From Microbotryum violaceum (lineage: Eukaryota), in assembly GCA_001244265.2 (NCBI GenBank), contig CDLV01000009.1, positions 1,860,001-1,924,000 of the forward strand: DNA of 64,000 bases, written 5' to 3'. The notes below the pieces were generated by a model that ran no database searches, was not told the DNA's origin, and was given only the letters and a program-made list of their open reading frames with translations. Below, in pieces: positions 25,972 to 64,000 of this stretch (its first letter is position 1; every line of letters begins with the position of its first letter). The position numbers and the translations under genes are program-made.

Positions 25972-25988
25972 GCGCCTCGCACCAAAGC

Positions 25989-37283: not shown

Positions 37284-38325
37284 CTTCCAGGCCCTCAAGG
37301 AAAAGGACATCGAGCTCGAGCGGCAACTCGCCAAGCTCAGAGGCACCATCGACCCCGACTCCTTCAACAAGCGGTTCTCCGACGCTATAACTGACTCGCA
37401 TAAGGAGCTCTGCCGAGTCCTTACTTGGCAGTACGTCTCGATCTGTCGGCGCCTCCTCAGCTTATCGTCGAAGGTCGCCTAGACATCCCCAATTCGTACA
37501 TTTCTTGTGTCGTGCCGGTCGATTTTAGATGCCATGATCTTGTCGTCACTGTCCCAGAAATCACCGTCGCGGACTGTGCCAGGCGCCCCATGCCGTTCGA
37601 GCTCATGCCCGACCCTACGCGACGCTTCACCCGAGGCGAGTTCCACTACCTGACCGATGAAGAACTGGCCCAATTATCTCCGCGCCGGCTTGAGGAAGTG
37701 TCCTTTGCGTTGCCCGCCAATCGAGAGGTAGTGGTACCCAAAAAGCCCCGAGCAGTGATGGAGTTGGTCCTTACTCCCGACACTCAAGATCCCGTCGCGA
37801 AGCAAGAGGATGTCGATATTGAAGTCCCAGACGTACACGACCCAGTCATCAAAAGGGAGGAGGCCGATCCCGAAGTCAACAGCGTACGCGACCCAGCCGT
37901 CAAGAAGGAGGAGGCCGATCCCGGAGTCGCCAGCGAGAGCGAAGTCTTGTCGTTGTTTGGTAGTGGAACTCGCCTCGGGTGAAGCGTCGCGTACGGTCGG
38001 GCATGAGCCCAAACGGCACGGGGCGCCTGGCACAGTCCGCGACGGTGATTTCTGGGACAGTGACGACAAGATCATGGCATCTAAAATCGACCGGCACGAC
38101 ACAAGAAATGTACGAATTGGGGATGTCTAGACGACCTTCGACGATAAGCTGAGGAGGCGCCGACAGATCGAGACGTACTGCCAAGTAAGGACTCGGCAGA
38201 GCTCCTTATGCGAGTCAGTTATAGCGTCGGAGAACCGTTTGTTGAAGGAGTCGGGGTCGATGGTGCCTCTGAGCTTGGCGAGTTGCCGCTCGAGCTCGAT
38301 GTCCTTTTCCTTGAGGGCCTGGAAG
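37284..38325. repeat. Inverted repeat IR2: arms 37284-37650 / 37959-38325, ~308-bp spacer
   Basis: 367-bp arms with about 6 mismatches by eye; both carry the same unknown-gene fragment pointing inward. Confidence 0.97.
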
Positions 38326-38898
38326 TCGTCGGCGGAGGGGGACTGAGGAGTAACAGAAATGGTGGGGCTCTGCGATAGGTCGGACATGCTGGAGGATCGA
38401 GTGTCGCGGATGGTGGAAGAAGGAGAGAACGAGAGGCCTCTCAACACAGACGCGTTTTTATGTCAGTCGGTCGGGACGACCTCCTCGTCTGGGGGGAGTT
38501 GTGGTACTCGGGATCCCGTCGCGTGCAGCAAAGTCGGAAATGAGACTTCTGTTTTCAGAAATAAGATGGGACTCCTGATCTCGTCGACTGAATTAGAGTA
38601 CTCGGGTCACGCGGACGTCGGCGAATTCGGTGGTCTCGGGGATCGGGCTGGAGTCGCCTAGTCGGGAAGCGCGGATTCGGCTAACTCGGCGTAGCGCCAC
38701 ATGAGCGGATAAAAGTTCAGAGCAAGGAATGGCGTGATCAGGACGAAGTATGGCGTGATCAGAAGGCCGAGTGTCGGAAAAGAGGAGGAAGCTGGCCCGG
38801 AGGGATTGGAGTGTCCTGGCGTTGGAGGGGAGACTCGCTTCTTGTTCGGGGGAGATCAGACCCCCTTTGGAGGGAGACGACTCTCGGAGGAGTGGACC

Positions 38899-39141
38899 AG
38901 GACCCGGGAAAGCTCAGCCCAATGTGCGTCTCGAAGATTTGTACTTTTCGGGCCCATTTATGCCTTGTGCTATGCTACATGACGTGGTTTTTCATGGTAG
39001 AGTAACTTTTTCAACACAACCCAATAATCTGGTCTTATACCGGAATACATACACCCCTTATATAGGGATATTCGGTGTACAAATCGGCCTAAAACCGTGA
39101 TTTTTTCGAGACGCACCTTCGGCTGAGCTTTCCCGGGTCCT
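38899..39141. mobile_element. MITE (243 bp), 37-bp TIRs, 8-bp TSD
   Basis: TIR AGGACCCGGGAAAGCTCAGCC(C/G)AA(T/G)GTGCGTCTCGAA at both ends; AGTGGACC duplicated at 38891-38898 and 39142-39149; AT-rich non-coding interior. Confidence 0.9.
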
Positions 39142-39288
39142 AGTGGACCACTTGGAGAGAGGACATTTCTGCGAATCTATCATTCTCAGTTTCACTTTCT
39201 GCGTGTTTCTCGTTTTTCGGCATCTCGGTCTCTGCGTTTCGATAGTAATCAGCCCCCTGTCTCTGATCGTCCGCTCACTATTACCATA

Positions 39289-42153
39289 AAGGTATGCAGG
39301 ACAATCACAGAGTGATTCACCTAATGACTTGCCTGCAGATCGCTGACGAACTCCTTCCAGTGCAAATCTTCAGACGACTCCTCCTTTGATTACTCCATCG
39401 CCGATCAGACCGATGTCTCGTTTGCTCCCAGCCAAATCTTCATCTCCCCTCGATACGTCAAGCTTGCGTCGTTCGCTGCCAGGGCCGATTTTTCGGAAGA
39501 AGTTCTTAAGTCGACCAGCTCCGCTCTCGACCTCGGCACGCTGCCGGCAGAAACACTACTGTTAATGCGGCTATGTTTTTGTTCCCTTCCGCATCAAACA
39601 ACGCCTGCAGAATCATCTCGCTTACTGAAATTGCTACCGCCTAATCGTCACCTCAGATCTACCGGCACCCTAAAGATTGTCATCAATTTCTGCATTGCAC
39701 TGCCATCCCCGCTCAACGCTCGCTCGTAAGCCGCACCTCTACAAGATGAGGGCAGGACTGGAACACCCCCGCCTACAGTCACTCTGGTGAAAGCACACTG
39801 CATCTTGGCGAGGCGGCATCAGCATCGAGCTTCTTTGCCATAGCCCAAGCGGAGGCCGACGACGAGGTGCGACGGCAGAATCGTCAACTAGCCGAGTTCC
39901 GCACCTCAAGTGATGGCCACCGCTACTCCCGGTCATCGCACACCCATCCGAACGACGTACAACATCCGAATGACCCGGAAGATGGAGACTACCCGGAATT
40001 ACCGAAGTACAACGAGGGACGAATAAAGATGACCAACCTCATGCTCGATGAATACCCTAGAGAAGTCGTTTTCGATTCATGGAGATCCAACGGCCGTTCC
40101 AATGTCGAATGGTGGCTTGTCGTATCTGTGGTCTTTCTCAGCATCGGGCAATCGAAGTGACTCGGGTGGCGTCTGGCAAGGCCCATGTCCGGAACTGAAC
40201 ATCCAGTATATCAAGTACAGCAAGAGATACTGCTTTGGGTGTGTTTCTGCGTCCGATGTTGCGACCGATCCTGTTGTGGCAAGCGTCGACCTCCGACAAA
40301 GATATCAGTACCAAGGAGGGCAAATCGCCTGGAGGAGGTCGAAGCGCTGGACACTACACAGGGAGCGCCACCTCGTGCAAAGCGATTGGTCCGAACGTAG
40401 AGCGCACATCATCGCAAATCCAACTCTGTCCAATCTCAGCTTACAACGGGCCAATGAAGCACATTCTCTGTTCGGCAAGCATAATTCGAGCACAACGCAA
40501 GGATCACCCGGGCGAGGTCTTCATTTTTCCACAACCATCCTCCTCCGCCTGTCTCGTCCGTCATCGGAACAAATGGTACAACTGCAACGTCTGCGTCATG
40601 CCATGTCCCAAGCATCGCGGCAGAGCTACGCATGGGCCAGATGACCGCTTGCATAGACAACCCACCACACCGGCCGTCCGCTTCCGAGATCTGTCCACTA
40701 TACGACAATACTAGGACGATTGCCAGGCACAGATCTCGGAAGCGGACGGCTGGTGTTGTGTGCTGTCTGGCAAAGCGGTCATCTGGCCCATACGTAGCTG
40801 TGCCGCAGATGCTTGGGGCGGGACGCGGCATCACGCAGACGTTGCAGTTGTGCCACCTGTTCCGATGACGGACGAGAGACAGACAGGCGGAGGAGGATGG
40901 TTGTGGAAACCCGAATGCAAAATGAAGAGCTCGCCCGGGCGATCCTTGCGTCGTGCTCGAATGATGGTTGCCGAATAGAGAATGTGGTTCTTTGGCCCGT
41001 TGCAAGCTGAGATAGGACATGGTTGGATTTGCGATGATGTGCGCTCTACGTTCGGACCCATCGCTTTGCGCGAGTTGAGTTTGTTGGGCGCTTCCTGTGT
41101 AGTGTCGAGCGCTTCGACCTCCTCCCGGCGATTCGCCCTCCTTGGTACTGATAACTTTGTTGGAGGTCGACGCTTGCCACAGCAGGATCGGTCGCAACAG
41201 AGAAACTCACCCCCACCCAAAGCAATATCTCTTGGTGTACTTGAAATACTCGGCGTTCAGTTCCACCAACCGAGTCGCTTCGATTGGCCGATGCTGAGAA
41301 AGATCAGATACGACATGCCACCAACGGAACCTGGGACGACATCGTTGCCGTTTCAACGTCGAATGGGTCTCCATGAATCGAGAACGACCTTTCTGGGGTA
41401 TTTTTCGAGCATGAGGTCGGTCATCTTCATTCGTTCTTCGTTGTACTTCGGTAATTCCGGGTAGTCTCCATCTTCCGGGTCATTCGGATATTGTACGTCG
41501 TTCGGATGGGTGTGCGATGACCGGGAGTAGCGGTGGCCATCACTTGAGGTGCGGAACTCGGCTAGTTGACGATTCTGCCGTCGCACCTCGTCGTCGGCCT
41601 CCGCTTGGGCTATGGCAAAGAAGCTCGATGCTGATGCCGCCTCGCCAAGATGCATTGTGATTTCAGCAGTCCTGACGAGAGTGACTGTAGGCGGGGGTGT
41701 TCCCATCTTGTAGAGGTGCCGCTTGCGAGCGAGCGGGGATAGCAGTGCAATGCAGAAATTGATGACAATCTTTAGGGTGCCGGTAGATCTGAGGTGACGA
41801 TTAGGCGGTAGCAATTTCAGTAAGCGAGATGATTCTGCAGGCGTTGTTTGATGCGGAAGGGAACAAAGACATACCCGCATTGACAGTAGTGCTTCTGCTG
41901 GCAGCGTGCCGAAATCGAGAGCGGAGCCGGTCGACTTGAGAACTTGGTCCGAGAAATCGGCCCTGGCAGCGAACGACGCGAGCTTGACGTATCGAGAGGA
42001 GATGAAGATCTGGCTGGGAGCAAACGAGACATCGGTCTGATCGGAGTAATCAAAGCAGGAGTCGTCCGAAGATTTGCATTGGAAGGAGTTCGTCAGCGAT
42101 CTGCAGGCAAGTCATTACTGGGTGAATCACTCTATGATTGTCCTGCATACCTT
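39289..42153. repeat. Inverted repeat IR3: arms 39289-40694 / 40729-42153, 34-bp spacer
   Basis: ~1.4-kb arms align as reverse complements throughout (roughly 85-90% by eye, several indels). Both encode the same decayed ORF (MTCLQIADELL..QIF..LL, ...EADDEVRRQNRQLAEFRTSSDGHRYSRSSHTHPNDV..., ...CPISA.NGP..HIL...CNVCVMP...PAVRFRDL) pointing inward. Confidence 0.97.
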
Positions 42154-43479
42154 GGAGAGCAATCCCGAGCTCGTCAGCAAGCTCGTCGAGCACATGCTGA
42201 AGATAAACGAAACGACAGGCTCCTGCTGTGAAGTTGATGGGGACAGAGGGCGTCATTCGCACCGCCACGCCAGCAACTAAGTAGCCGGAGGGAGATCGTG
42301 CTTCGACGGTCGAAACTGAGCACGTGGAGCCCGCCACACCATGATATCAGCGATGTCCAGAGTAATGTACAGATATTGAGTTGGAAATTTGAAAACGTAC
42401 CATTAATTCTCAGAGCAATCGATTCAGGAAAATGACGAGTGGTACTGAGGGATGGCGAAATCGACGCGCTGTCTTGCGGAAGAGCCCGCCGATTGAGTGT
42501 TCGAGAGCGAGAGGTTCGGTGTTAAAATGCAATGACGACGTTGTCCCTTGCGGCCGCGGTGCACCCAGATCGGTGTTGGAAGTGATACCATTGAATCTCA
42601 ACGTCTGATCGAGAGTGTTCGTTGCTGAAAACAAAAGAGGAGATGTAGAGGTGCGAAACGGGAACACGCCGTTGGAAATCCGACTGGAAATGGTAACCGC
42701 ATCGTCGCAATGATGGTGGCCCCCGTCTTGGCCGACTTCGCTCTTATGCACACTACGGCTTGGATCGAGATTGATACTTGGTGCTAGGTGGTTGTCTCTG
42801 CATTGCGAAGGTAGAGGATGAAGGTGGGGCCGGCACCGCGCCCGTCGACGTGGCCGCAAGGTGGTCGCCAGCCTCAGGCGCTCAGACCCTCAGCAGTTGT
42901 CATCGTCAAGTTCGATGGAGGCTTCTGATATGGGTGTCAAGATCGGCTGATGCTCGAAGCTCGGTTGCTTGCGTGCTGGCTTGGCGTACGGTGTCTTCGG
43001 CCGTGTTGCGAGTTGCTGAACGCGCCTGGGGCCGGCCGTCGCGTCAACCTTCGCAACTCCATTGACCGTCCTGAAACTTTGATCCGACTAGGCCACGTTG
43101 ACGCTTCCGAAGGCCAACTCCTCGCGAAAGAAAGCGAGACGACAGCCACGCCAAACAACTACTACAGTAAGTCGGGTCTGAAACGTGCGGCGGCGCGGCC
43201 CTGACTGATACTACGCGTCAAACAATTGAGTGGTCGGCGAGGGAGGGTGGAGTAGAGGGGGGCGAGGGTAAGGGGGCGGGTGGGCGAAGGGGCAATTCAT
43301 GCAAGGGAGGCGCTCGGCTGAAAAAGTCCCGCTCGAGCTTCAATTTGCACCGGCCGGGGGACAAAGTCCTCGCCAAATTTGTTCACCAAGAGGAGTCTGA
43401 GCTTCTTGTGTAACTCAATCGGGTCAACTCGATCTTCTTGAGTTAACTGTGAGCTCCAGTGAGCAGCCCGAGAGCGACG

Positions 43480-44811
43480 GATAGGCAGTTCGGGGGTTGT
43501 GTTGGTTGCGTCGTCAAGGAGATCGAGGACGCGGTCATGATCGCTATCCACGGTCGAGCCTCGGACGGATCTCAGAAACCCCCGAAGGTCTCTCGGCTGC
43601 GCCTCTGCACCCCTCTCGACCACGGCGGCTTTGGCTTGATTGACTTACCTCGGCGCCTCGCGGTCGATCACGCCAAGTGGGTCTTTCATCTTCGGGACCC
43701 GGACGGCTGCTTCATTCGGCACCTCTTCGACATCCGCACTCGCCTTCAGGCGGCGAACGAACGCACCCCCTTTACCTTGCCCAAATCAGGCCCCAACCCA
43801 CATCGTCGCTCGTGGGTCTGGATCTGGTGGGCCTACTTTTGCCACCCTCCTCCACAGTGGGAACGCGCAGTGAGGAAGACGAAGGCCCTGCTCCCTCCAC
43901 GATGGATCCGCTTTTTCGAAGCCTGGGATTTGGTGACAACGCTGAACCCCCCCGAACTTTCCAAGAGCCCGAATCTGGAGCGGTGGGCAACACACGTCCT
44001 CTACTTCCCAGCAGGCCACGGAATCCGACTCTCGGTGAACCCGACGCTTTTCCGAGGACCCGATGGCGAGGTGATGACTCCGTCTTCGTTTGTGAACGCG
44101 TCCAAACGCCACCAAGCCTTCCTCTACCCTCCTATCCTCCCTCTCGGTCATCAGAGGGTTTTCTGTCTCCCCGAGCAACGCTGGAATGCCTGGTGGAAGG
44201 CGCTACGCAAGATTCGCAGGGTTCATTCGGACGCCGAAGACACGGCCCACCTCCTCTCCCTAGGTTCACTTCATCCAGGTAGCCAAATCGCTTCTCCAAA
44301 TAGCCGTTCTCTCCACAATCGATCTACCGCATGTGTCATGTGCCTGTCGGAGGCTCCGGAGACCCTGGCACACCTTGCGGTCGGTTGCCCGTTTGCCCGC
44401 CGCCTCTGGTCTGCGCTCACTCCTATCCCACACCCCGACTTTGTTCAGTTCGTGTGCCCGGTCGTTTCTCGCTCGGAACGCCGACCCGTCGAGCTGCGTC
44501 TACTCTTCTTCCACGCGATCTGGAAGCTCTCTCGTCGCCGTCGATTTTCGTCGGATCCTCTGGAGCCGATCGCCGAAACGGCATTTGAGGAGCTCCGCGC
44601 GTCCATCCAGGAGTCCAAGGGACGACTGGTTTCGCTGTAACCGCCTAAGGGGGTTTTAGTGGGTATGGTTGATTTTGTTCCAAGGTCAACGAGTCCCACA
44701 CTACTGGCCTCGCCAGTGTGCTTAACTGCATTCCCTCCGTCTTTTCCGAGGATTTTTAGGCATTAATATAGATATGCTGTTAATGAAATCTATTAGATAA
44801 AAAAAAAAAAA
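43480..44811 (+). mobile_element. 5'-truncated non-LTR retrotransposon (L1/Tx1-like LINE) with poly(A) tail
   Basis: Post-RT motif LCTPLDHGGFGLIDL; zf-RVT knuckle CVMCLSEAPETLAHLAVGCPFARRLW; stop 44640; 3' UTR hairpin ACTGGC-CTC-GCCAGT (~44703-44717); A13 tract at 44799-44811. Confidence 0.9.
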
Positions 44812-45599
44812 GAGTTCCCTTGATGTCGTTGGCTTTGCCCTCGAAGCGGATCGTAAGGGCGACTCTCTGAACTCAATCGATGGAGACCGACGCGGTGTGC
44901 CCTTGAAAGGCGTTGGCGTTTGTACGGGCATGGTGGATCATGAGGGCGGTAGCGACGTCGGGGACTGCAGTGGCGTTGTGGACCGAAGGTGAGACCGGTG
45001 AGGCGCGGCTGGCTGATTCACGTCGGCGCGAAGAACCGTCCCTCTGGGTCCGTGCGCGAGCCAGCTCCAAGTCGAAAATAACGGCTCTCACCGCTGTAGC
45101 TCAATGAATAGGATTTGAAAGACTCTTCTCTTGGGTAGATGCTCGAAAAATAGCATAAGAGCGCGCCTATTGCAACGATTGTATAGGTTGATTTTATTTC
45201 CCATGCTACAGCAAGGTGGTAGGCTTGCGACCCGCGATCTCAGTCGGTGGGAGTTCTTCAGCACCACAGCTCGGCTCGAGAAGCTGTACCGCGACTCGAC
45301 GCACTGGGGGCAGTCGCTGAAGCGGCCGGTGTCACTGTTTCATCGATCAAGTCCGAACTCCTAACGCTTCCCGAATTGCTCATGCTTCCGCCATGCCTCT
45401 CTTCACTCTACCGATGACGTTCGTTACGCGTATGACGATGACTCGGAGGACGCAGTGGAAAAGTGGGGGTTACTAGTAGATCGCGGACTTGTACTGGAGG
45501 GACAATGAAAGCGGACGGGCTCTGTTTGGTCATCGACGCGGGTTCTGGCAGCACTCTAAGGAACCCACCCTACAGCACGAGCACGTGTGGTAGCGCGTG

Positions 45600-46335
45600 G
45601 GTCAGTTGCTCAAGGCGAAAGCCTTGCTCGGATACCTCTCAAGGAGGCTCCCCGTCCTCGAGGCTTCAACTTCTTTAAGCTCTCCCCGCCTTTTACGATT
45701 CGCAAGCTTCTTCGGCTTGTGAACATGGTGCGGTTCCCAGGGAGGGAGGACTGTATCAAGTGTTTCCCTCGTTGGACTTATCAGAGCGACACGCAGCGCT
45801 TCTGGAGATGGCTCCACGACCGGTTCGCTTCGGTGGCGGAGCAGGACACCCACTGGCGGCTCATGTACCATGTGACATCGACGCGCAAGCTGCAGCACAT
45901 TCGGGGCCAGGCTTTGTCGCCGTCGTCTGTGTTCTGTGGCAACGATTCAGCGGTCATCGAGATGGTGTCGCACTACTTTTTCGAGTGCGCGTACTCGACC
46001 AGCTTCTGGGGCGGGGTGCTGCGCATTCTGGTCGACAAGCTCGGCATCGAGGATGTGAACGTCGATCCGTCGACGTTCACTCCGGAGCAGCTGACTATGG
46101 GGCTCCCCTTTTGCGGGGTTGTGGGAGAACGACCTCGAAATGGGTGTGGGTTCGGCTGGCCTGCGCGATCGGCTTCCAGCGGCTGCACCTGCTCCGTTGG
46201 CGCGTTCATCAGCGGTTCGAGCTGGACAACGTCGTGGCCCCGCCCTCGCTCCCCAGTGCGCTCAGAACGTTCGAGCGAGATTTTCTCTCTTGAGCGGGCT
46301 TTGTGCCTGGGGCTCGAGATTGGGAGGTGTGATGA
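45600..46335 (+). mobile_element. Second, different LINE 3' fragment (frameshifted)
   Basis: FWRWLH...HWRLMYH...SVFCGNDSAVIEMVSHYFFECAYSTSFW (decayed zf-RVT), continuing in another frame as LPLLRG...WVRLACAIGFQRLHLLRWR. Confidence 0.75.
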
Positions 46336-47385
46336 CCGATTTAAGTCCTTCCTTCCCATTTTCCTCCCCTCCTCTCTCCCCCCTCCTTTCCTCCCTTCTT
46401 TTTCGGAGGTCGACTTTTCTTTCAGAAGCTGACTGTCTCGCAACATGTTGCACAGTGGGAGGCTGCGCACCTTTCTTTACTTTGCGCAGTAGCGGTTTCC
46501 GTTCTTGGATGGATCGGCAAGCCGGGTCGATCGTGTTTGCGTTGGGGGCTTTTGTCCCCTCTCCCCCCCCCCCCTGTTTCCCTTCCCTTCCTCTTCTCGT
46601 TCCTGTTACTCGGTCTTTGAATCCGCGTCAACCACTTCTCCTTGTATTCCTAAGCCGTGTGTTGGATTCCGTCGAATGGATCGTTCGTTCGCGTCGGTCA
46701 AGATCTACGGCATGGATCGGGAAGAAAGGTGATTCGTTTTTGGTCAACATCCTCGCGTCAAGGCGAGGCTCGTTTCGTTGTATTGGATAGTTTTTCGCTC
46801 GGCCCCGACGGCTCAACAGCCAGCACTCGAGACTCAGCCGAGGGAGGACATCAGGTGCTGTCGGGATGGCGAGTAGCGCCTGTTAGTCTCTGGGGACCTC
46901 TATCTCTGACTCAGCTTCGACCCCCTCCCTTGGCCCCTCCGGTGTGTTCCCCTCCTCTCTGTCTTAGTAGTCCTGATTCTCCGTGTTTCCAATCTGTATA
47001 TTCTCCCCCTTTATTTCTCTCAGCGCTCTCGCCTGGTTTTCGAGTATCTTCGCTCTCGCTCTTGGGACGTGAAGCGGCAGCAGTACTCAACGCCCCGAGC
47101 CTCAGGTTTCGACTTGGTACTTTAACTACATTCGGCCATCAGGCACCGTCTACTGGAGCACCGCTTCCTCGAGACCTTTTGCTAATTTCCACCGCGTCCT
47201 TCAAGCTTCAAGTCTTAGCACCCCTTCCGCCCTCTGTGCAATTCGGACCTGGTCCATAAGGGTCACCCATTCCTTACTCTCGTATCTCATCCTCGTTCTC
47301 GTTTGAGAAAAAAATCTCTGAACCATTTCTTCATCGCTCCAAAACAAAAAAAATCAACCTATTCTTAACACCCTCGAAGCTCTAC

Positions 47386-51286: not shown

Positions 51287-51331
<45 letters not shown>

Positions 51332-51653
51332 GAACTTGAGCTCGACGCTCTCCTCTTCCACCGACTCGGCCTGGCTCTCCGACTCGGGCACGCTCTCGGG
51401 CAGTCCCCCCTCTTTTTCAGCCCACCGCACCTCCCACTCCCGCCCCTCCCACTTCCTCAACCCCCATCACCACCTCCCCGAATCCAACACCGATTCGGAC
51501 CGCCAAATCTTCACGCGCAATTCGCGCCAAAATTCCTTCAAACACGACTCGGATTCGTCCGCGAGCGATTCGGCGACCGAGCCTCTGTTCGAACAACACA
51601 CACCGAGTAGGACGGGCGCTACCAGTCCAGATGCAGACTGGGAGCGATTGTGA
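50895..51653 (+). CDS. Uncharacterised ~218-aa protein: N-terminal membrane anchor, Ser-rich disordered body, C-terminal DWERL
   Basis: Two ORFs joined in phase 0 by intron 51231-51332 (GTGAGC...CTGGA...T40...ACAG); hydrophobic MFHIYLLVGCMTVGVICLVAY. Confidence 0.7.
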
Positions 51654-52027
51654 ATGTGCGCGTCAAAAACCTCATGCGGGTTGATCGAATGTGCTACCCA
51701 TCCCCGCGCTCGCTTGCACCACCGCTCGCTCGTCTCCGACTCTTGATTTCGCATCGCTCGATCTGTGTTATCGTTTTATTATTACGCTCTGCATTGGTAA
51801 ATCTCGGTTCATCATTCTCGTCACCTTTTCGACTCTGGAGCACGAGTCGAGTGACCTAAAAGTGAACCTACTTGCTGAAAAAATTCGACTCGAGAGAAAT
51901 TATTTTCGCCTCGCCGCCCCGTCAGAGGTGGAGAAATCTACCATCTCGGTTTCAGTTCATGTAAACCGGGCCAGGAATCAAGAGTGAATGGTGTGACATA
52001 GAAATTACCTTACCCATTCTACTCTAC

Positions 52028-54206
52028 TCAAAACTTTTCAAACCCGATCCGATGCTTCCCCTCCCCCCTTCCCCTCCCCTCATCCCTCCTAATCGTCTGT
52101 TTCCCCCTCCCCTCCCAAGGTTGTCTCCCCTCTCTCCCACCGCCAACCCGCTTCTTCAAAGCCTCGTACCTCCTCTCCATACTTTCCTCCCTCTCCTCCC
52201 CCTCCCCCAAATTAGGATGTCGATTCCTCCCCACCCATTCTTTAACCCTGTCCCAAACCCCCTCCCATTCAGCCACTTTCGTAGTACCCAAATACCTACC
52301 CACAACTAGCTTAGGTACGTCCAAAATCTTGTTCAAACATCTTTCCAAAACTCGATGCAGAGTAAAACGGAAATATTTTTCTTCCAACGTCGTTGGAACT
52401 TGACGCGCCTTTGTCGAATCGGGATTGGTATCGGAATCGGGATCGGGATCGTCGAAAAGGTATTTCTTCCCATCCAAACCACCCTCTTTTCGAGGGGTCA
52501 AGAAAGTTGATAAAGCTTCTGAAAGTTGAGATCGATCTCTTGTACTTAATGCGGTATGTAAAAAGTACGTTAGAGCTTGTGATGAAGGACGAAGTCGTTT
52601 GGTGCTGAAGGGGATGATACGGGTTTCGAGAGTTTTCGAACTTGAGTTTGATGGGGTAGAAATCGGTTGGGATGATGGTGTGGGTAAATTTTGACCAGTC
52701 ATTCGTGAGAGAATGTGATAGGCTCTAGAGAGGTTCACATTCTTCCAACACGCCTTGATAACTAGTGCATAACACTGCATACTAGGTTCGATCCCTTGGG
52801 CTAGCATCCATTCCAATAAAGCTGTGATGCAACACCAGAGAGTCAGTTCCGTCGAGATGGGGTTCGATAAAGAAATCGTTTATTCGTCAAATCAACTCAC
52901 CTTCAGCGCCTGCATCACCTCGTTTCGCGGCCCAAGCTTGTAAAACCAATTCACACTGTTGTGGCCCAATCAGTTGGTTCCCAAAACGATCACCATGATC
53001 TCGTACTTGATCGAACCATTCGACCGCAAGGTTATACCTCTGCATCTTGAGTAACAAGGTCAAGACCGAAGAGAATGAAGTTGAATCCATTCTTAGTAAA
53101 GGTTTCGGAGTGGTCGGATCGTCCAATCGATGCGTTTCGCTTAAAGGTAAGAGACCAAATATTTGGGTAACGATCGAGATACCGAGCGCTTGATCATCGG
53201 GTCGTACTTGATCTCGACAGATGGAGAGCACGACGGATAGGGTACGGTTGTCGAGTTGAGAAGGGGGTAAGGTGTTGATCATGCGATTATAGATCTCGAT
53301 CGCGAGCTGAAAGTTTTCCGCCGATGGAGGAAGCGCCTTGAGGAACCCCAGGACGAGCGAATACGTCGCCGAGTTGGGCGCCAATGGACCGCTCGTAGGA
53401 AGCGAATTGAACGTCTCCAATAAGAGCTCCCATTTTTCGGTATTACCCAAAAAAGTGAGGAAATGATTCGTCGGCAAGACGGACAATTCGTCACTATCGT
53501 GTTGAAGGGTCATCTTTTCCGAATCCAAAGCGTTGTTGAGATGGGTGACCCATTGCGAATGAATCGTCCTCGCTCTCGAAAGTGTTGCCGATGAAGCGAT
53601 TGTGGTCTTGGTCTTGTTGATCGTGCCCGTCTTGCCCTTCGCCTTGTTCGCGCTCGAGGCGAAACCTCTCAAAGCGGTCGCGAATGATCTCGTCGTCGGC
53701 GCGAATCCCCTCCTCTTCATCTCCATCCACAACTCGTACGCCTTTCCGGTATCCCCAAAGCTTTGCAACACCTCATTAATCAACACGTTCCAAACGACCA
53801 CCGTACAGGTCGGAGCGGGCGTTCTTCGAACGAGGTCAACCGCTTTTTCAAGTTGGTCACGTGAGCAAAGTAAACGAACTTGGTCGCAGAGCATATACGA
53901 ATCGTCGTAGGGTTGACCATTTTGACGAAAAGGAGAGCCCAGGGTAGCGTTTGATTTGGGTGATTTGGAGTTGTCATTGGACTTGGACTTGTGGCGTGGT
54001 GGTGCACGCTCGAATGGCGAAGAGGGGGCCGATCGATGGGTTCGTCCTGGTGCGTTCGATTCGGAACTCGCCGGTCCGGACGACGAACGACGGGGAGGTG
54101 CAGAAACCTTCACCGTAGTCGAATAGAGTAAACCACCTGGGAAAGCAGTACACCTCGTCGGGTTGACGGGGTGGATCAACCGCGTCGCCGCTGTGCGAGA
54201 GAACAT
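52028..54206 (-). CDS. Mitochondrial pentatricopeptide-repeat (PPR) protein
   Basis: Presequence-like MFSRTAATRL; PPR motifs VVVWNVLINEV...AYELWMEMKRRGFAPTTRSFATALRGF, PNSATYSLVL, EWMLAQGIEPSMQCYALVIKAC; one intron ~52823-52900. Confidence 0.85.
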
Positions 54207-54384
54207 GGTCGAGTTGCGAGCGGAGAGCGGAGAGTGGAGAGTATTAGTGAGAGCACGCCTGCGAAGGTCGAGAGCGCATCTAATGCCGCATTAGCAATCC
54301 CCAGTTAGCACGGTGGGTAGTGGCCATTCTGTGCGCCGCGCGGGCCCGGTGTCTTGTCAGTCGCCGAGCCGCCGCCGCCGCGCC

Positions 54385-56926
54385 ATGACGAGCCCAGACG
54401 CGGCGCTTTCCCCCTTTCTCTCCTTCCCCACTCGCTCATCCAATACTACCTCGCACAACCCCAAACGCTTACCCAACAGTGAGTAAGACCTTGGAGTACC
54501 GGTTCGTCCCGCTACCTATTCCGACCCACGCTCCTCTTTTCTCACAGTGCCTCGACCGCCCGTTGCCTCGCGCCAAGTCGTGCAGGTCAGTCAGTCGTCC
54601 CTCCCCACACTCTTACTCACGTCCCGTAACGATCTCAACGGCCATAATGAACCCCTCTCTACACATCCTTGCTTCTGTTTTCGACAGTCCCTCCTACAAC
54701 GCACGCACAAAACCCACTGCGGCTGCTCGCTCTGCTCCACCGCCAAGAATTCGACGCTCGACATCCTCAACGCTTCAAAGGCGATCCAATCCGGCGGTCA
54801 AGCCAGGACGTACGCGACCCCGGTCGATGCACCTCAGACAGAGTATGCTTTCGAAGTCGCGGCGAGCAATTTGAGGTTTGGTGAAGGCGTCACCAGGGTC
54901 AGTGCCCGTGTGAAACGATCGGACCGGCTCAAAAGGGGACCAGAGTAGCCGGTCGTGGTCAATGCACTTTAGCCTTCCCACCCACCCGAGATACACTCGA
55001 GCTGACCCCCCGATACATTCTCCCACAGGAAGTCGGAATGGATTTCGCCAATCAAAAAGCTCGCAAAGTAGGCGTCTTTACCGACGCGACCGTGTCCAAA
55101 CTCTTGCCGATGAAGATGGCGATCGAGTCGCTCGAAGCGGCCAACGTCCCTTACGAGGTCTACGACAAGATTCGCGTAGAGCCTAATCAAACTTCGTGAG
55201 TGCTGCTTTTTTGCTTCTGTTTGCAGGTCTGCCAGCGAGGTTTGCCCCGCCCTGTGCTGCTTCTTTAGTGCCATCTCGGTCACCTTGCCCCCACCACCGG
55301 CAATTTCGGCACCGGCGGCGAATTCGTCTGCGCTTTTCTCCGAAGCGCCGAACGAGACCCACGATCGCTGACATCCGACAATAATCTCCTCGTAAATCAT
55401 CATCATCATCATCAAAGATGGCAAGCCGCGATCGACTTTGCCAAGCACCACGACTTTTCTCACTTTCTCGCCGTCGGCGGTGGATCCGTTATTGATACCT
55501 GCGTAAGTCCACCTATTTGCACGTCATCATCTCGGTTATTTCACTCTGGTTCGCCGACGCTTACAATCGCTGATGCTTTCGGTCTACGTTTCCCCACTCC
55601 ACAGAAAGTGGCCAACCTCTTCGTCTGCCACCCCGAGGCCGAGCTGCTCGACTTTGTCAATGCGCCCGTCGGCAAGGGCAAGCCGATCAACAAGACCCTC
55701 CGACCTTTGATCGCCGTCCCGACTACGGCCGGTACCGGATCCGAGGTGAGCTATTGTCTCAACTTTACACGATCGAGCCCAGCTCTGATCCCCGCCTTTT
55801 ACGGGAACAGACGACTGGCACGGCCATCTTTGACTACTCGCCTCTTTCGGCCAAGACGGGTATCGCGAACCGCGCGCTTCGTCCTCTGCTCGGCATCGTC
55901 GATCCGCTCAACACCGACTCGTGCCCTCGCGCGGTGCACATCTCGTCCGGCCTGGACGTGCTCTTCCATGCCTTGGAATCGTGGACCGCGATCTCTTACC
56001 TCGACCGACTACCCCGTCCTTCGAACCCTCTGCTCCGTCCCGCGTACCAAGGTCGAAACCCCGTCTCGGACGTTTTCTCCGAATGGGCCCTTCGCCAAAC
56101 GGTCAAGTACCTCCCTCGCGTTGCCGCCGACGGCTCGGACAAGGAAGCTAAATCTTCCATGTTGCTCGCTTCAACGTTCGCCGGTATCGGATTCGGTAAC
56201 GCCGGCGTTCACCTCTGTCACGGTATCTCTTACCCCATCTCTGGACTCAATTACTCCAAGGGACGTTACCAACACCCAGGATACGAAGTCGATCACCCGA
56301 TCGTTCCGCATGGTATCTCGGTCGCTTTAACAGGTCCAGCCGTCTTTAATTTCACCGCCCCTTCCGCACCCGACCGTCATCGTCAAGCAGCGGAGATTTT
56401 CAACGAATTCCAACCGGACGGAATTGACATCAAACGCATCAAAGATGAAGACGTAGGAATGCTTCTACACGATCGTATTGCTCGATTTTTGGTCGGTTTG
56501 GACGTACCGAGGGGTTTGAACGCCGTGGGGTACAAATCTGCGGATGTGGACGAGTTGGTGTTGGGCACTTTGCCGCAACGAAGGGTGTTGGATTTGGCTC
56601 GTACGTTTCTTCTTCTTCTTCTTCTTCTCCTCTTTGAGCTTTGAGATATTTTCCTGTGTCGGTAAAGATGACTCACTCATATCCCCCCCCCACCCCGAAT
56701 TTGTTGGACCCTCCCCACCCCATCCCATCCCATCCCATGTCCGACCTCGAGAACAGCCGGTTTCACAGGCAATGAAGGCAAGGAAGAATTAGGTCGCATC
56801 ATTGAACAAGCGAGTAAGTCGATCTTCCGAACCATTTTACAATCATCGAATCAGGAATATCGCTGAACAAGGCTTTTTGCTGAAATCGTGTCCCTCCCTC
56901 CTATCGCTTTTACAGTGTCGTTCTGA
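54385..56926 (+). CDS. ADHFE1: Hydroxyacid-oxoacid transhydrogenase (iron-containing ADH family)
   Basis: TEYAFEVAASNLRFGEGVTREVGMDF, AVGGGSVIDT, PLIAVPTTAGTGSETTG, SGLDVLFHALES, GFGNAGVHLCHGISYPISG, IVPHGISVAL; start either 54385 or the intron-split A|TG at 54478. Confidence 0.93.
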
Positions 56927-57322
56927 AACGGACCTAGCAACTTTGGATCGAAACGAAGGTGAATGCGCGTCATTGGGGGGGGGGGGGGTTCGACGACACC
57001 CCCGCCGAGTCCTTGATTTTTTTTTAGTTCTTCTTTATTTTTATTGCGCTTTCTTTGTTTGTATGTCATTGAAAATGATATCGCATTCCTTTGAACTTAC
57101 TTTGAATTCGTCAAAAATCGATTCAAGGTCGGGGTTCTTCCCACCCTTCGATGGGTGCTTTCGAGTCGCTCAAGTTTTAAATAAAGTCGTTCGAAAAAAG
57201 CTTTGCTGTCTACTCTTCAAGGGCCTCTTTCTCACAAGTGATACTCTATAGGAACCGAAACGAACGCTTGAAACCTCTTGATTCGATATCTAAAAGACGA
57301 AGGAACAGAAACCCCCCCTCGC

Positions 57323-58994
57323 TCAAACGGCAATCATTTCCTTCTCATTCGTCGCTTCCCTACCCCCCGCCCCCGCCGAACGAGAAGACACCACCACATC
57401 CTGAGCTCCCGCCTGTGCAACCCCACCCGCCAGACCCCTCTTAACACTCTCCAAAATACTATCCAAACTCCCCCTCCACTCCCGCAACCTCTTCTCCAAA
57501 ACCTCCCACTCATCCTTCCCAAACGACCTAGGACTAGTCGCTTTAGTTACCCAAAACTTTGTTTCTGAACTTTGTAACCTACCCGAAACTAATCCGGCTC
57601 GAATGGCGTCAATCACCCAATTCTCAACCAGTTCTTCTTCTTCCCCTTCCCCACCTTCGTTCGTCGAGATTGAAAGGTTTAAAACTTTGGAGATTTCGTT
57701 ATAGGGAACTCGTTGACCGACTCGAGTTGAACATAATTCGCTTAAATTGATTAAGCGTAATTTGTTCTTCAATTTTTCAACTTCCAATCCGAATGACTCG
57801 AGTTGAGGAACGACTGAATCGGAGGAAAGCAGCTGGTCGAGATCTTGGACGGTTGAACCGGGTTGAAGGAAAACGTTGAGTACTTGGGATAGGACTTGGG
57901 TTGAAGGTTGTTGGAGAGCTTGGAGGTTCGAGAGGGTGGTGAAATCGTATTCGTTCGGTAGACGAAGTACCAAAGCGATCAGGTGTGAAGCCAATTCGTT
58001 TTGGGTTTTTGAACCCGCTTCAGTATCGGCGTGGGAAAGATGGCCAATGAGTAGATCCTTTTCGACTAGAGTTAAACGAGGTACGATTTGTTGACCCTTG
58101 TTCAATAAAGTGACGATCTTTAATACGGCTTCGTCACCTTTTTGTCTGTTTTCGTTCGAAATTGCCTCCCCCGCGAATCCCCATTGAACCAACCAAGTTT
58201 CGAGCGAACGAACGACGGGTTCAATAACGAGGTAATCGTCATTCTGCGCGGCCGCCTCGACCAACTTTTCAACCACTTGTAAACGTAAACCATCGAAAAC
58301 TTTTTCGTGCGTATCGAGCGAGTTGAACACGTTCGCCAAGGTAGCGTATCGAGTTGATAAAGTAGGTTGAACATTCTTGCCCTGACTGAAAGCGAGCGTA
58401 TCAACGAGGTCCAAGATCGTTTTCGAGAAAGCTTGATCGGGTACTTTGTAGGTTGATAGGATGAGAGAAAGGAAGAGATGCGCGAAACCTTGGAATTCTC
58501 GATCGAGTGCTTGGATCCTCACTCCTTTGAGATCACGCAAGAGTTGTTCCAATACCGTACGGCGTTGTTCGAGTTGGTCCTCCGTTACAGGCGGCGTAGG
58601 GGGAGTAGTCGATTCATCCAGCGCGGCGTCGTCCTCGGTGACGGGCTTGGAAGGGGAAGCTTGTCGTGCGGTGGTGGTGTGTTGTTGTACGTAATCGGTG
58701 CGTTGAGCTTCGGTCAAAGCGGTGGCTGAAGAACGCGCAATCACCGTAGCCAGTTGCGAGATCTAAACGGGAAGCTCTCTCTCCCAGTGGATTAGCAACA
58801 TCCCACTAGTTTTCGATCCACATCATCGGTGGGGTTGTATCAGGTCGAAGGGTACGCACCTGCTCTTCAAAGACGGGTTCGACGGCGACGAAAAAGCATC
58901 GTCCGCCGTGCGAGTTGGTAAACTCGTCCTGGAACGCCAAACAGGACGACGAAGACGGATCAGATTGGCCGTTCGCTGTGGTGGTCGAGGTCAT
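57323..58994 (-). CDS. EIF3M: Translation initiation factor 3 subunit M (PCI domain)
   Basis: N-terminal VFEEQ|ISQLA, LANVFNSL, PCI domain KLRLINLSELC...VPYNEISKVL...VENWVIDAIRAGLVSGRL...RSFGKDEWEVLEKRLREWRGSL. Confidence 0.92.
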
Positions 58995-59178
58995 GGTGGA
59001 AGGGGGTAGGGTAGCTGGTGGTGGTGGTGCGACAGAGTGCTAAAAGCGTTCGAGGCGAGCGCGTGCCTTGGCGGGGTGCCTGCGACGGGGCGACGGCTGG
59101 CGACGGCTGGCGACGGGCGACAAATTTCGCTCATTACAGACGCGCGCGCTGCCACGCTTGCACTTTTTTCTTACTAAT

Positions 59179-59226
59179 AGTCGAGCACGGTTCAAGTCGA
59201 GCACGGTTCAAGTCGAGCACGGTTCA
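59179..59226. repeat. 3 x 16-bp tandem repeat in the eIF3m/eIF3f divergent promoter
   Basis: AGTCGAGCACGGTTCA x3; GCGACGGCTG-type repeats at ~59082-59120. Confidence 0.9.
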
Positions 59227-59401
59227 TAATGCGCATTTCAGTCTTGTCTCGCAGCAAAGCTCTTTCACCAGCTTTCACTCGGTCACGCCCTCGCGACGAT
59301 CCCCTTACGCCCTCTTACGGCTTGGCTTGCCTTGGCTGCTCTGTCCTCGCCTCTTCACTCACCTCACCCCACCGCGCACCACTCACCGCGCACCACTCAT
59401 C

Positions 59402-60545
59402 ATGTCGCTCTCGCTCGCGCTGCCCTCGACCTCGCTCGCCTCGACGCGCCCCGTGTCCAAGGTGGTGGTGTCCCCGCTGCCCCTCGCGGCGATGCTCGAC
59501 CACCACCTTCGCCGCTCGTCGTCGCAGGACCGCGTGCTCGGCACCTTGCTCGGTATCCGCCACGAAGCGTCGAACGAGATCGAAGTGCGCACCTCGTTCG
59601 GCGTGCCTTACCAAGCCCAAGGTAAAGGCTCGATCACGATCGACATGGACCACCACAAGGCCCTGTTGGACCTACACCACAAGGTCAATCCTCGCGAAGT
59701 CGTCGTAGGATGGTACGCCACTCACCCGACCCTCAACTCGTTCTCCGCCTTGATTCACAACTTTTACGGTTCAGAATCATCACCGTTCCCCGCCGTTCAT
59801 CTCGTGTTGGATCCTGAAACGTTGGCGTTTGCGAGTTACGTTTCGACTCCGGTTGGAACGACCCAGAGAGCGGATCAAGTCGCTTTCGTTCCCGTCCCTA
59901 CCGAACTACGCGTTCACGCCCAAGAAAGACCGGGGATCGAATTGGTGACCTCCAATTTGACCTCTCTGAAATCAAGTGCCGCCACCGCATCCTCCGACAC
60001 TACTATCGACCCCTCAACCACGATCGCCTTAACCACCCCACTCGCGACCCTACTAACCCTACTCGAAAAAGTCTCCCTCATGCTCGACTCGGTCCTCTCC
60101 TACGTACACAAAGTGAACCTCGGCCAAATCAAACCCAACGAAAAAGTAGCCAGAGCTTTATTAGAAACGGTAGGGAGCGTCCCCGTTAACGCGGTAACGA
60201 GTTTATCGAAATCGTCGTCGTCGTCGTCGTCGTCGTCGAATGGGAATGCGAATAACGCATCGACGAGCTTTGAGGATGAGTTTAATGCTCATTTGGCGGA
60301 TGTTTTGATGGTATGTTGTAAACCCATCTTTTTAGCTTTTTTTTTGGGGGGGGGGGGGGGGGGGGGTGACGTGATGATGATACGCTCGACGCCGCCGAGG
60401 GAAAGCGCACTTTCTTATCATTCTGATCCTGATCCGCTAATTCAAAACACTCCACACCCCCTCTTCACTCAACCAGGTCTCCTACCTCGCCAACGTCGTG
60501 CAAACCCAAACTGAAATCTCGTCGAGGCTCAACCTGCTCGTTTAA
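59402..60545 (+). CDS. EIF3F: Translation initiation factor 3 subunit F (MPN domain)
   Basis: MLDHHLRR...DRVLGTLLG...EVRTSFGVP...LHHKVNPREVVVGWYAT; C-terminal FNAHLADVLMVSYLANVVQTQTEISSRLNLL; intron 60311-60476. Confidence 0.93.
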
Positions 60546-60614
60546 AACAAAAACGCACACCTTTTGGTGGGGATAGGGATTTGGTGGGGTTTGGGATGGT
60601 GCTGGTGGAGATAA

Positions 60615-60708
60615 TGAACAAACATGGTTCGTTGAACAAACATGATTCTTTGAACAAACATGATTCTTTGAACAAACATGATTCTTTGAACAAACATGAT
60701 TCTTTGAA
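60615..60708. repeat. 5 x 18-bp tandem repeat downstream of eIF3f
   Basis: TGAACAAACATGATTCTT units. Confidence 0.95.
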
Positions 60709-62912
60709 GGTTCGAAAAAGGGGAGAATGAAAATGCTGTAACGCTATCGGCCCGCTCAAGAGGAAGAAGATGATCGAAGCGAGGCGAGGCGCGAAAGTAA
60801 ATTCGAGTGGTAGACGTGACGTGGCTGGTGGTATCAAGTTAGAGTAGGACTTGCAATGTGTGTGTTTTTTGTTTTTACTTCGAGCATTCAGGGAACTTGG
60901 GTTGGGGTCTCTGCTTTTTTTTTTATTTTTTTTGAAAGAGTCCGATACGAGCGCGATACACCTCGATCTACCTAGTACCGCCTTGAGGACCCATCGGCGA
61001 TCGGATCATCATTATTGCTTGGGTTCCTCCCTTCTTCGTTCAGACAAGCACCTCGAGGTTTCGATGGGCCGAACTCGATAAGGGATATACGCCTGCTCTT
61101 TTCACGAAACAACCCCCCCCCCCCCCCCCCCCCCCCCAATAAATCCAGAAAGGTGAAACGGATGGAAAAGTCCACGAACCAAAAGCCCCCTTTAAAAACT
61201 ACTGTCAAAAGGTCAAGACCCCCAAAACAAACCAAGGCAAGTAATAATGATAGGATCAGAACGAAGGAGGTTATGGAAGATTTACCCCAATGTTTGTACT
61301 GCCGCACAGGATTTAACGTTGATAGCACAACTTGAGTGCGCGTGCATGAAGATTGGGAAGCGAACCGCAAAGATGGGATGATGAAGGGTGAATCCGGAGG
61401 GGGAGCCGCAATGGAACGGACAAGTAGTAGTTCGCATACGGAGAGGGAAACCATAATTTCGCGGATGAGGGGCTCGGATGAGAGATGGCACCCGGAGAGG
61501 GTACCGTGATGTCTCGGATGAGGAGTTTGAGAGGTGAGAGGTGGTTGCCTGAAGATTTGGACTATGACAACTACACGCGAAACTTATGGATCCCGTAGGG
61601 CATAACTTGCTAGAAGGAAAAGAACGAGATAAAAGTATGACTGCGAGGACCAAATGGACGGACGGCGAGCTCTTCGTCAAGAGGAATGCAATGTCATCTG
61701 CCTCAAGTCTATCCGTCCGAGACGACGACAATCTTCGTGCGTTAGTGCTACGAGGGCGCTGAAGACGAGACCCATCATGATCTGGAGCCCTCGTCGGCGC
61801 CGCTTCCGTGGTTTCTCTAGCTTTGATTTCAAGAGCGACGAGGTAGAGTGTTGGTAGTCGAAAGGACTCAAAAGCTGAGAGGTGCAGTCGAAGATGGATT
61901 GATCAATGGCGCCCAAATCTGAACGAGAGCGCAGCTTTCGAAAACATGTCACCGCTGACCCGTGAACCGACAAGTGATTCGCTCAGACAACAGGCTACAA
62001 GGTATGCTCGACCCATAAGATAGTGCATTTTGAATCAACCCAATTAAAAGACTCCCACAAGCGCCACAGGTGTAATTTAATCCCGCCCTCTCCAGATTTT
62101 GACCTCGGCCTCAGCCTGGAATCCGGACTGAGCTTGTGAGTCCGGCAAGGTCATGTCCCGACTTGGGTAACCCCAACGAAGAGCGTCACGGCCTGTGGTG
62201 ACCTATGGTATAGCAAAGCGGTCGATCAAAGATGATATGGAAAGATAAGGGAAAAGTCGGGACTGAGACCGAAGGCGAAGGAGACGAGAGAGAGCGACCG
62301 GAACGGCCGAGAGAGAGAGAAGGGAAAGGGGAGGGGCAGAACCGAGACCGAGTACGAGAACGAAATACTGAGACTGGAGACTGGAGACTGGAGACGACGT
62401 CGAACGAGAATTGAAGCACGCAGAAAGTGAGAGTCGGACAAGATTAGGTATTGGATCCTGGAAGTGGTCTGGCTAAGAATAAGAAGCAAACTCCCCTCAA
62501 ACGTTCCGACCATTCAAATCGCTGCGCTCCTTTCATTCCCCTTCACACTTTCATCCGCACAGCCAGCCCGTCTCTTATTCAAATGCTGCCACATAATTCG
62601 TCGCTGACAGTCAATCCTTGGTCATCAAAGTACTGAGTTTACCCGGCAGCGCTTTATCGATGAGAAATCTGCCGAAACCGGTATTTTGATCCTGCCCGAA
62701 CCAGTGTTGACCTGGACGATTTGAAATGACTCCGAAACTCGGCCCCGCTACAACCAAAATGACTCCTGAACCCGGCCCGCTACAACCGCTGCTCTCTTGA
62801 AAATTTGGAATGTCGATTCCGACGGGATCCCAAGTACCACAACTCCCGCCCAGACAGGGAGGTCGTCCAGACCGACGAGCCGTGCCGAACAAAGAAACAG
62901 GGGCATCTGGAC

Positions 62913-63631
62913 CGAAAATTACTTCTTTTCTTCCCAGCATACCTTCGAGCTTTCTCCTTCCCTCACCTGCTCAGTTCCTACGCCCATCCTTCCTGTGCAC
63001 TGTCCGCCATCGTTTCCACAGAGCGGCTCGAGTGGCGCAATATTCAGCGCAGAGCGAACCACATGAAGCTTCACAGGGTCCTAATCAAAGATCTCCAAGA
63101 CCTCAGACAATCCATCGACCAATCCTACGCTGATGCCATCACCGAGGGCCTGAAGGAGGTAGTACAGATTGTGAACTGGCAGTTCGCGGCCCTTTTTCGG
63201 CGCATCCTCTTTATCGAAGCTCAGCTAGGTATCCCTGACGACGACTTCTGCGGGGGCCAGCAACCCCGCACCCTATGGGCTCCCGAATATCAGACGTCGT
63301 CGTCATGGATACCTTGCCGAGTTTCGAGAACGAGGATGCGCCGAGAAAGAGCGGCGAACTGCAAGTCACAATCTGTACCACCTCCTTGGGGCCCTCAGTG
63401 ATGGATTTGGCGCAGGATTGGTTGATGGATTGCTGGGGGTCTTGGAGATCTTTTGACTGGGACCTTGAGAAGCTTGATGTGGTCCGCACTGCGCTGAATA
63501 TGGCGCCACTCGAGCCGCCGCTCGGTGGAAACGATAGCGGACAGTGCACAGGAAGGATGGGCGTAGGAACTGAGCAGGTGAGGGAAGGAGAAAGCTCGAA
63601 GGTATGATGGGAAGGAAAGAAGAAATTTTCG
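62913..63631. repeat. Inverted repeat IR4: arms 62913-63250 / 63291-63631, 40-bp spacer
   Basis: ~340-bp arms are reverse complements (outer ~90 nt near-identical, inner part ~80-85% by eye); left arm reads MKLHRVLIKDLQDLRQSIDQSYADAITEGLKEVVQIVNWQFAALFRRILFIEAQLGIPDDD. Confidence 0.95.
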
Positions 63632-63677
63632 CTTTGGCCATCGCGCGCTTTCTCTACTCTCGGCGCCTCCCCTGGTT

Positions 63678-63896
63678 TCGGCTAGGTATCCCTGACGACG
63701 ACGTCTGGTGTTCAGGAGCCCATAGGGCGTGGAGGTTCACTGCCACAACATGCTCGTCAATTTTCCAGGCATCTCGCTCGGAAAAATTGACCAGCATCCT
63801 GATGCTTGGAAAGCTCACGAGCATGTTCTGGCAGTGAACTTGTGCGCCCTATGGGCTCCTGAACACCAGACGTTGTCGTCAGGGATCCCTAGCCGA
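63678..63896. repeat. Inverted repeat IR5: arms 63678-63773 / 63801-63896, ~27-bp spacer; right copy continues past the window end
   Basis: TCGGCTAGGTATCCCTGACGACGACGTCTGGTGTTCAGGAGCCCATAGGGCG...GTTCACTGCCACAACATGCTCGT pairs with its reverse complement; 63847-64000 also directly repeats ~63271-63423. Confidence 0.92.
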
Positions 63897-64000
63897 GTTT
63901 CGAGAACGAGGATGCGCCGAGAAAGGGCGGCGAACTGCCAGTTGACGATCTGTACCACCTCCTTGAGGCCCTCGATGATGGCATTGGCGCAGGATTGGTC

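Follow-up and report, generated by a model that had tools for sequence, protein, structure and literature searches.

The palindromic loci described here are probably the folded remains of a retrotransposon gene. They lie in the window, the 64,000-nucleotide stretch of Microbotryum DNA that we analysed (contig C7, 1860001-1924000, of a genome of 33 Mb in 20 contigs). We favour the explanation that an antisense accessory ORF of an extinct Gypsy-type lineage, with a DUF4100 gag and an aspartic protease, was folded back by template switching and persists in half-elements. Every coding copy that we found in this genome is a hairpin, and these hairpins could give rise to silencing RNA.

Self-comparison of the window yields four folded regions, 35391-35999, 37284-38325, 39289-42153 and 62913-64000, and fold-backs occupy 5,604 of the 64,000 bases (8.8%). 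The inverted repeats at both loci of interest sit where the original prediction had placed them. At locus 1, two arms of 367 nt (37284-37650 and 37959-38325) differ at 6 positions and enclose a 308-nt loop. The left arm, on the plus strand, is a 5'-truncated copy of the antisense ORF that begins within the coding region and bears the loop. The loop itself (37651-37958, plus strand) is the unpaired continuation of the ORF with its acidic repetitive C-terminal part, and it stops at the fold-back junction. On the minus strand, the right arm and the ORF start together span 37959-38387, with the ATG at 38387 and a 5-nt insertion relative to a third copy on contig C11; here the ORF is cut at the junction. 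A leader (38388-38490, minus strand), whose last ~50 nt are common to locus 2 and to gag-protease copies, leads from the ORF to a polypurine tract (38491-38499, plus strand) immediately 5' of a 3' LTR. This Gypsy-type LTR (38500-39288, plus strand; TGTGGTA...TACCATA) carries a dispersed insert of ~250 bp at 38896-39142. The neighbouring fold-back at 39289-42153, which derives from the 5' portion of a gene resembling a transposase, begins exactly at the LTR end.

Locus 2 had been described with two arms and actually has four, in inverted repeats at 62913-63631 plus 63678-63896/64008. It is bordered on the minus strand by a 638-nt LTR of a second subfamily (62204-62841), followed by the polypurine tract and leader (62842-62912, with the tract at 62842-62850). 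Arm a1 (62913-63255, plus strand) holds the ORF with its conserved core and a first in-frame ATG at 63063. Arm a2 (63268-63670, minus strand) is an inverted, frameshifted copy that retains upstream bases missing from a1. Arm a3 (63678-63790, plus strand) is a short copy of the downstream part with the C and CH motifs, and a4 (63791-64000, minus strand) is again inverted and runs ~8 nt past the window end. The third palindrome, at C11:144191-145690, has 3 substitutions over 546 aligned nt. The DNA similarity between the two window loci, previously called low, includes a 57-nt match of 91% at the polypurine tract and LTR start (38466-38521 vs 62820-62876), and the two LTRs are related.

The peptide match between the loci is real. 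In a six-frame self-search of the window it is the sole convincing long-range protein match, with 31% identity over 55 amino acids at E 2e-6; compared with the uninterrupted C11 copy, the locus-2 peptide is identical at 22 of 58 positions (E 2e-12). The local alignment scores 114, compared with a mean of 27 (SD 4.6, maximum 46) for 300 shuffles, and the sense-frame pair is the best among 18 frame pairs, the top opposite-strand pair scoring 60. While the proposed homology stands, each of the two peptides first put forward is a composite, since the one from locus 1 reads over the 5-nt insertion and the one from locus 2 joins two arms. The insertion, near 37458-37462, is present in both locus-1 arms and absent at C11, where the first 105 ORF codons are uninterrupted. 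For the 39-codon core, picked via the protein alignment, a choice that favours the sense frame, we find pS 0.69 and pN 0.32 in this frame only, while the other five frames give pN/pS 0.83-2.17; changes at its synonymous sites have almost reached saturation. Locus 1 and C11 are ~94-95% alike, with a weak signal from 30 changes (pN/pS 0.48). The codon comparisons show past coding constraint on the antisense ORF.

An AlphaFold model from a five-row alignment contains two long helices, with a mean pLDDT of 60.8 and values below 50 in the C-terminal part. A Foldseek search of viral structures with this predicted model returned 0 matches at E <= 0.001. The product would comprise a long helical N-terminal part, a short segment containing the C and CH motifs and an acidic repetitive tail, and our guess is that it acted as a dimerising regulator of the element. 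Pfam assigns no family to the ORF pieces and gives weak repeat matches only, Rfam has 0 matches within the window, and the top atlas score for the ORF, 0.80, is at chance level. No homologue appeared among proteins of 185-2000 amino acids, and a profile search of proteins of 134-2000 amino acids returned P0002 only, both being weak evidence of absence. The homologues found are 2 Microbotryum proteins, and 2 among 50% representatives; protein database searches gave no relatives outside Microbotryum, which is likewise weak evidence of absence. In P0002, from M. saponariae, 136 residues can be read without a break, and the protein closes with ASSSSVR, which translates the reverse strand of a stretch further downstream. 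Judged from the protein sequence alone, this implies a further fold-back centre. P0001 and P0003 from M. silenes-dioicae carry the locus-1 junction and left flank. The two protein subfamilies pair with two LTR variants, which suggests co-inheritance of ORF and LTR. In the literature, searched without supplements, Repbase and subscription papers, we found no description of the ORF family, a Microbotryum antisense ORF or the hairpins; the combination of DUF4100 and retrotransposon gave 0 papers, and the word 'antisense' is absent from the main texts, supplements aside, of PMC3248453 and PMC5381629.

The identity of the host element follows from the dispersed, sharp-ended repeat TGTGGTA…TACCATA that adjoins both window loci. 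The genome contains 45 ends of this LTR, of which we surveyed 30 for target duplications; after removal of 5 duplicates (one C1/C2 twin and four tandem copies) 25 remained. Exact 4-bp duplications flank 10 of the 25, duplications with one mismatch another 5, and 3 have none, with 0 duplications of 5 bp. The other ends have no further end within 1.3 kb (3 of 25), follow a G-rich tract (2) or precede a shared 18-mer (2). The LTR terminates in TA, not the usual CA, and its ends form short imperfect inverted repeats. We read the 18-mer as the primer site. It has 7 matches in the genome, 5 of them directly after the end of this LTR, and 4 of these 5 run on into a gag-like frame; of the remaining two, one stands behind another kind of end and the other lies elsewhere and has a single mismatch. 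The 18-mer is complementary to the 3' end of a tRNA gene on contig C9, 16 bases being genomic and the rest the CCA tail. ARAGORN calls this gene Gln(ttg); we take it to be an intron-bearing Pro gene. In element copies other than the window loci, the frame matches DUF4100 (E 2.9e-5) and gag-asp_proteas (E 4e-6), both just short of the curated cut-offs, and the atlas ranks DUF4100/protease clusters first with scores of 0.92-0.95. A search of the genome with the DUF4100 family gave no matches and also missed its controls, so that it is uninformative. In 6 matches the LTR follows the G-rich tract GGGGGGAG(T), and 5 of these belong to pieces with the ORF. Taken together, the LTR ends, the duplications, the primer site, the gag and protease matches and the tract identify the repeat as a Gypsy-type LTR running from TGTGGTA to TACCATA.

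Primer site, gag and polypurine tract fix the direction of the element, and the ORF is therefore antisense. At locus 1, locus 2 and C11 it begins just inside the polypurine tract of the LTR, opposite to the element; in the window the start lies on the opposite strand ~110 nt (locus 1) and ~220 nt (locus 2, first ATG) inside the tract. The original prediction had considered an undescribed fold-back element, a suggestion that finds no support, given the polypurine tract and LTR adjoining the ORF. We also rejected a Foldback or TIR DNA transposon, as the arms vary from locus to locus in where they end and where they are centred, and no target duplication was found. One end of the Microbotryum repeat reads TATGG on the opposite strand, which resembles the TATGG termini described for CryptonS elements (PMC3212892). 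A Crypton was rejected in view of the imperfect inverted ends, the 4-bp duplications, the primer site and the tract; neither a linked tyrosine recombinase nor terminal direct repeats were found.

The copies fetched contain no reverse transcriptase or integrase linked to this LTR, and none of the stretches fetched is a two-LTR element containing the ORF; all genome searches are lower bounds. Because no whole element, reverse transcriptase or integrase is linked to the LTR, we infer the position of the ORF behind pol. The ORF is present at 3 loci and in one fragment, and it is not in most family copies. At L045 and L040 the tract and a leader of ~50-75 nt are followed by unrelated sequence in place of the ORF. 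In view of these two copies, the ORF may be the captured cargo of a sub-lineage.

Antisense genes of LTR elements are known from plants and from Boty of Botrytis (PMC7264820, PMC11963269, PMC8365987, PMC4408406). The class named aORF-3R comprises additional ORFs that run antisense and lie downstream of pol, before the 3' LTR, as described for maize Grande gene23, rice RIRE2 and Silene Retand (PMC7264820, PMC11963269); the antisense ORF brtn of Boty from Botrytis and Sclerotinia, to which the literature also refers, belongs here as well. Like these genes, the Microbotryum ORF lies antisense to gag and upstream of the tract, starts near the 3' LTR and encodes a protein that is conserved across subfamilies. 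It also shares with them the lack of clear similarity to known proteins and predicted long coiled-coil-like helices. It differs in its basidiomycete host and DUF4100-type gag, with pol not found, and has neither a Pfam family, weak repeat matches aside, nor TRP28. In addition, every Microbotryum coding copy is folded back and broken. Grande gene23 has its antisense promoter within or close to the 3' LTR (PMC7264820), and the Microbotryum ORF may have been expressed likewise.

A tblastn search with the C11 peptide returned 8 matches in the genome; all 8 overlap inverted arms, at 3 loci. Other matches of locus 2 are confined to LTR and leader, or to a 5' fragment at C7:1928432-1928740, which is oriented towards locus 2 at a distance of 4.4 kb and shares 90-91% identity with the locus-2 arms. 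As background, we took 25 transposon-rich stretches around LTRs and other transposon matches, where 5 short-loop fold-backs cover 0.94% of 243,001 bases. This set excludes L035 and L037, which hold the family, and the tandem duplicates L032 and L034, and includes L106, picked in the knowledge that it held a fold-back. Loci 1 and 2 were themselves selected as palindromes, whereas C11 was not. Next to locus 1, the palindrome at 39289-42153 contains, in folded form, the 5' portion of a gene that also has unfolded copies, on C2. The two arms of the palindrome are sisters (43 shared sites vs 2). We presumably deal with a Mutator-like gene, judging from its motifs; Pfam gave no match for it. The stretch at 35391-35999 is folded likewise. 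These two neighbours weaken the proposal that the family had been singled out for folding, and the folded transposase-like gene means that folding is not specific to the ORF family.

The folds differ in age and position. Arm identity is 88-89% with indels at locus 2 and 98-99.5% at locus 1 and C11, and arm divergence across the fold-backs is ~0.5%, 1.6% and 11%. The zig-zag of locus 2 comprises four arms, each 88-89% identical to the others, which makes this locus much older. The junction of locus 1 is at 37958/37959, while that of C11 is at the equivalent of 37933/38064 and contains the microhomology CGACA. Independent inversions at the two window loci, as originally proposed, are thus supported, and so is a mobile gene family that was folded back more than once. 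A 55-nt microinversion is also present. The three loci share one polarity: the loop belongs to a truncated arm and is missing from the arm that carries a complete LTR. The C11 palindrome has a second arm that extends ~120 nt into the LTR. Flank contiguity and target duplication were looked for at C11 and not found. The arms are predicted to form duplexes with 243 and 557 contiguous pairs.

Contigs assembled from public sequencing runs contain parts of locus 1 and C11. Run X1, possibly the source of the assembly itself, contains the loop as a 368-nt unit (308 + 2 x 30) with arm sequence on both sides. Short-read contigs of run X7 span the locus-1 junction, and the C11 junction appears in runs X7, X9 and X18, the last of which also contains the C11 flank. 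Among the matches listed, none has a loose end at the junction. Short-read contigs that hold the loop and junction mean that the locus-1 hairpin is no long-read artefact.

Our favoured explanation would proceed as follows. The ORF, situated between the internal region and the 3' LTR of an extinct Microbotryum lineage, was probably once transcribed backwards from a promoter in or near the 3' LTR, and two old subfamilies would each have kept their own LTR variant. An ORF-sense single strand may have folded on short microhomology and copied itself toward the LTR, in one round at locus 1 and C11 and in several at locus 2. Copies without the 5' half would escape LTR-LTR recombination and persist, while whole elements would be reduced to solo LTRs. 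The loci would now be pseudogenes, able to give long double-stranded RNA if transcribed. Fold-back inverted duplications are known to arise by microhomology-mediated template switching. The asymmetric loop, the C11 microhomology, the multi-arm zig-zag of locus 2 and the microinversion all resemble such events, and template switching is the likely cause of folding, although recurrence in one small gene family exceeds the local background. Survivor bias alone fails to explain why L045 and L040 lack a fold beside the tract when all three ORF loci have one. Locus 1 and C11 could also derive from one palindrome with revised centres.

Other explanations were weighed against this reading. The arm polarity fits a chromosomal break as well as a stalled minus-strand cDNA, and such agreement has a chance of 1 in 8. 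A reverse-transcription accident, in which the stalled cDNA serves as its own primer or switches to antisense mRNA and the resulting hairpin integrates by its intact LTR end, would affect the tract-adjacent region, which is copied first after minus-strand transfer. Folding would in that case be confined to the part of LTR elements that lies close to the tract. It predicts the loop-free full-LTR arm and the truncated loop arm seen at all three loci, and the precise LTR ends agree with it. We nevertheless hold it to be distinctly unlikely, as three loci of one polarity may be coincidence, C11 gave neither flank contiguity nor a target duplication, and the DNA-transposon-like neighbour, which has no cDNA stage, is folded too. 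A natively palindromic element (LTR-ORF / ORF-LTR) moving as a unit appears very improbable. No unfolded copy was seen in this genome or among database proteins and the second arm of C11 reaches into the LTR, yet no two loci agree in centre, arm length or age, there are only 3 loci, none with two complete ends or a target duplication, and the family possesses an LTR, primer site, gag and tract of the usual kind. Long palindromes are a known class of assembly and amplification artefact. An artefact at these loci is hardly credible, however, with arms that differ by 0.5-12% and junctions recovered in short-read contigs and in proteins from other assemblies, which rules it out for locus 1 and C11; chance peptide similarity, held to be just as remote, is opposed by the shuffle test.

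The palindromes may further be killer loci that are transcribed, for example from an LTR antisense promoter, diced to siRNAs and retained because they silenced the family, which later died out, as Mu killer silences MuDR. Silencing hairpins are described for Mu killer of maize (PMC3440606) and for the inverted duplications that silence Ac/Ds (bioRxiv 10.1101/2020.01.07.897926). The Microbotryum loci are built like them, with a partial inverted duplication of a transposon gene at one element end and the possibility of a long hairpin RNA, and the layout of the 39289-42153 palindrome is even closer to Mu killer than that of the ORF loci. An expressed RdRP, two Argonautes and Dicer are reported for M. 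lychnidis-dioicae (PMC4469406). The folding of all coding copies, the full LTR upstream of each hairpin, the long predicted duplexes, the share of fold-backs in the window and junctions common to sequencing runs of other organisms are in agreement with retention. Against it, none of six arm pairs has a bias to G-U-compatible changes (p 0.25-1.0), the locus-2 arms have decayed with indels, and genome searches found no unfolded target. The Microbotryum loci also differ from Mu killer in their source, an accessory gene of an LTR retrotransposon, in their several independent loci and in that no live target was found. We regard killer loci as unlikely. A combined version is likewise unlikely, in which the host repeatedly kept LTR-driven hairpins of exactly this antisense gene, of a new protein family, as killer loci that silenced the retrotransposons until they were extinct, the hairpins being perhaps a built-in by-product of reverse transcription beside the polypurine tract.

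With the favoured assignment to a retrotransposon antisense gene, the orphan peptides gain an identity. Antisense accessory genes of LTR elements, described in plants and Botrytis, would now also be represented, by an unrelated protein, in a lineage from a basidiomycete. It is an open question how a host first recognises a transposon and silences it, and most of the documented natural killer loci come from maize. Should neither the killer nor the cDNA idea hold, the loci would be ordinary transposon scars. An RNAi-competent fungus with fold-backs of three ages in one gene makes both ideas directly testable.

At locus 1, the folded antisense ORF, four of the six differences between the arms are grouped at 37590-37615 within one 55-nt stretch. 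This stretch has short inverted repeats at its borders, and it lies in inverted orientation at the third locus of the ORF on contig C11, which is likewise palindromic. In the public sequencing run X1, a single contig spans the right arm of locus 1 together with its unique flank (37959-38529) but has the left-arm base at each of the six sites where the arms differ, which may reflect bubble collapse or arm-to-arm conversion.

The LTR beside locus 1 is directly followed by a second structure of 2.9 kb (39289-42153), whose first base exactly abuts the LTR end and in which the 5' portion of a transposase-like gene is folded back. Copies of this gene without inverted arms are found at C2:1786148 and C2:3278012. 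Pfam gave no match for the gene, which is probably Mutator-like by its motifs. Within the window, this fold-back is the layout nearest to that of Mu killer. Inside the LTR, we note an inserted dispersed element of ~250 bp with inverted ends (38896-39142); its read depth is high in the sequencing runs compared.

Upstream, a 609-nt palindrome (35391-35999, arms 95%) has no counterpart among the other genome stretches fetched. A dispersed repeat of ~130 nt follows it directly and opens with a small hairpin at 36000. The region 36127-37059, which has further copies elsewhere, holds a Helitron_like_N fragment (36219-36557, minus strand, E 1.7e-15). More old short-loop palindromes with arms of 72-86% occur in transposon-rich DNA of the fetched genome stretches L100 (4117-4922), L041, L044 and L106.

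The window also contains LINE-like fragments at 43453-44640 and 45560-46432, of which only the former has a zf-RVT match, below cut-off, and tandem repeats with an 18-nt unit (60615-60708) and with a 30-nt unit that includes a palindromic core (25792-26001). An eIF3m-like PCI gene (57326-58762, minus strand) and a JAB/MPN gene (59015-60514, plus strand), presumably eIF3f-like, form a head-to-head pair.

Elsewhere in the genome, G000:C3:173000-204000 (L032-L034) comprises at least five near-identical tandem units of 5.82 kb, each with two back-to-back LTRs of the locus 1 family and host-like gene fragments. The primer site is complementary to a tRNA gene (L121 1499-1581, minus strand) that ARAGORN calls Gln(ttg); this gene appears to be Pro with an intron. 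The copies in L045 (2318-5107), L040, L100 and L098 share the order gag-protease, ~0.9 kb, polypurine tract and LTR, contain neither RT nor integrase, and possibly represent a non-autonomous gag-protease subfamily.
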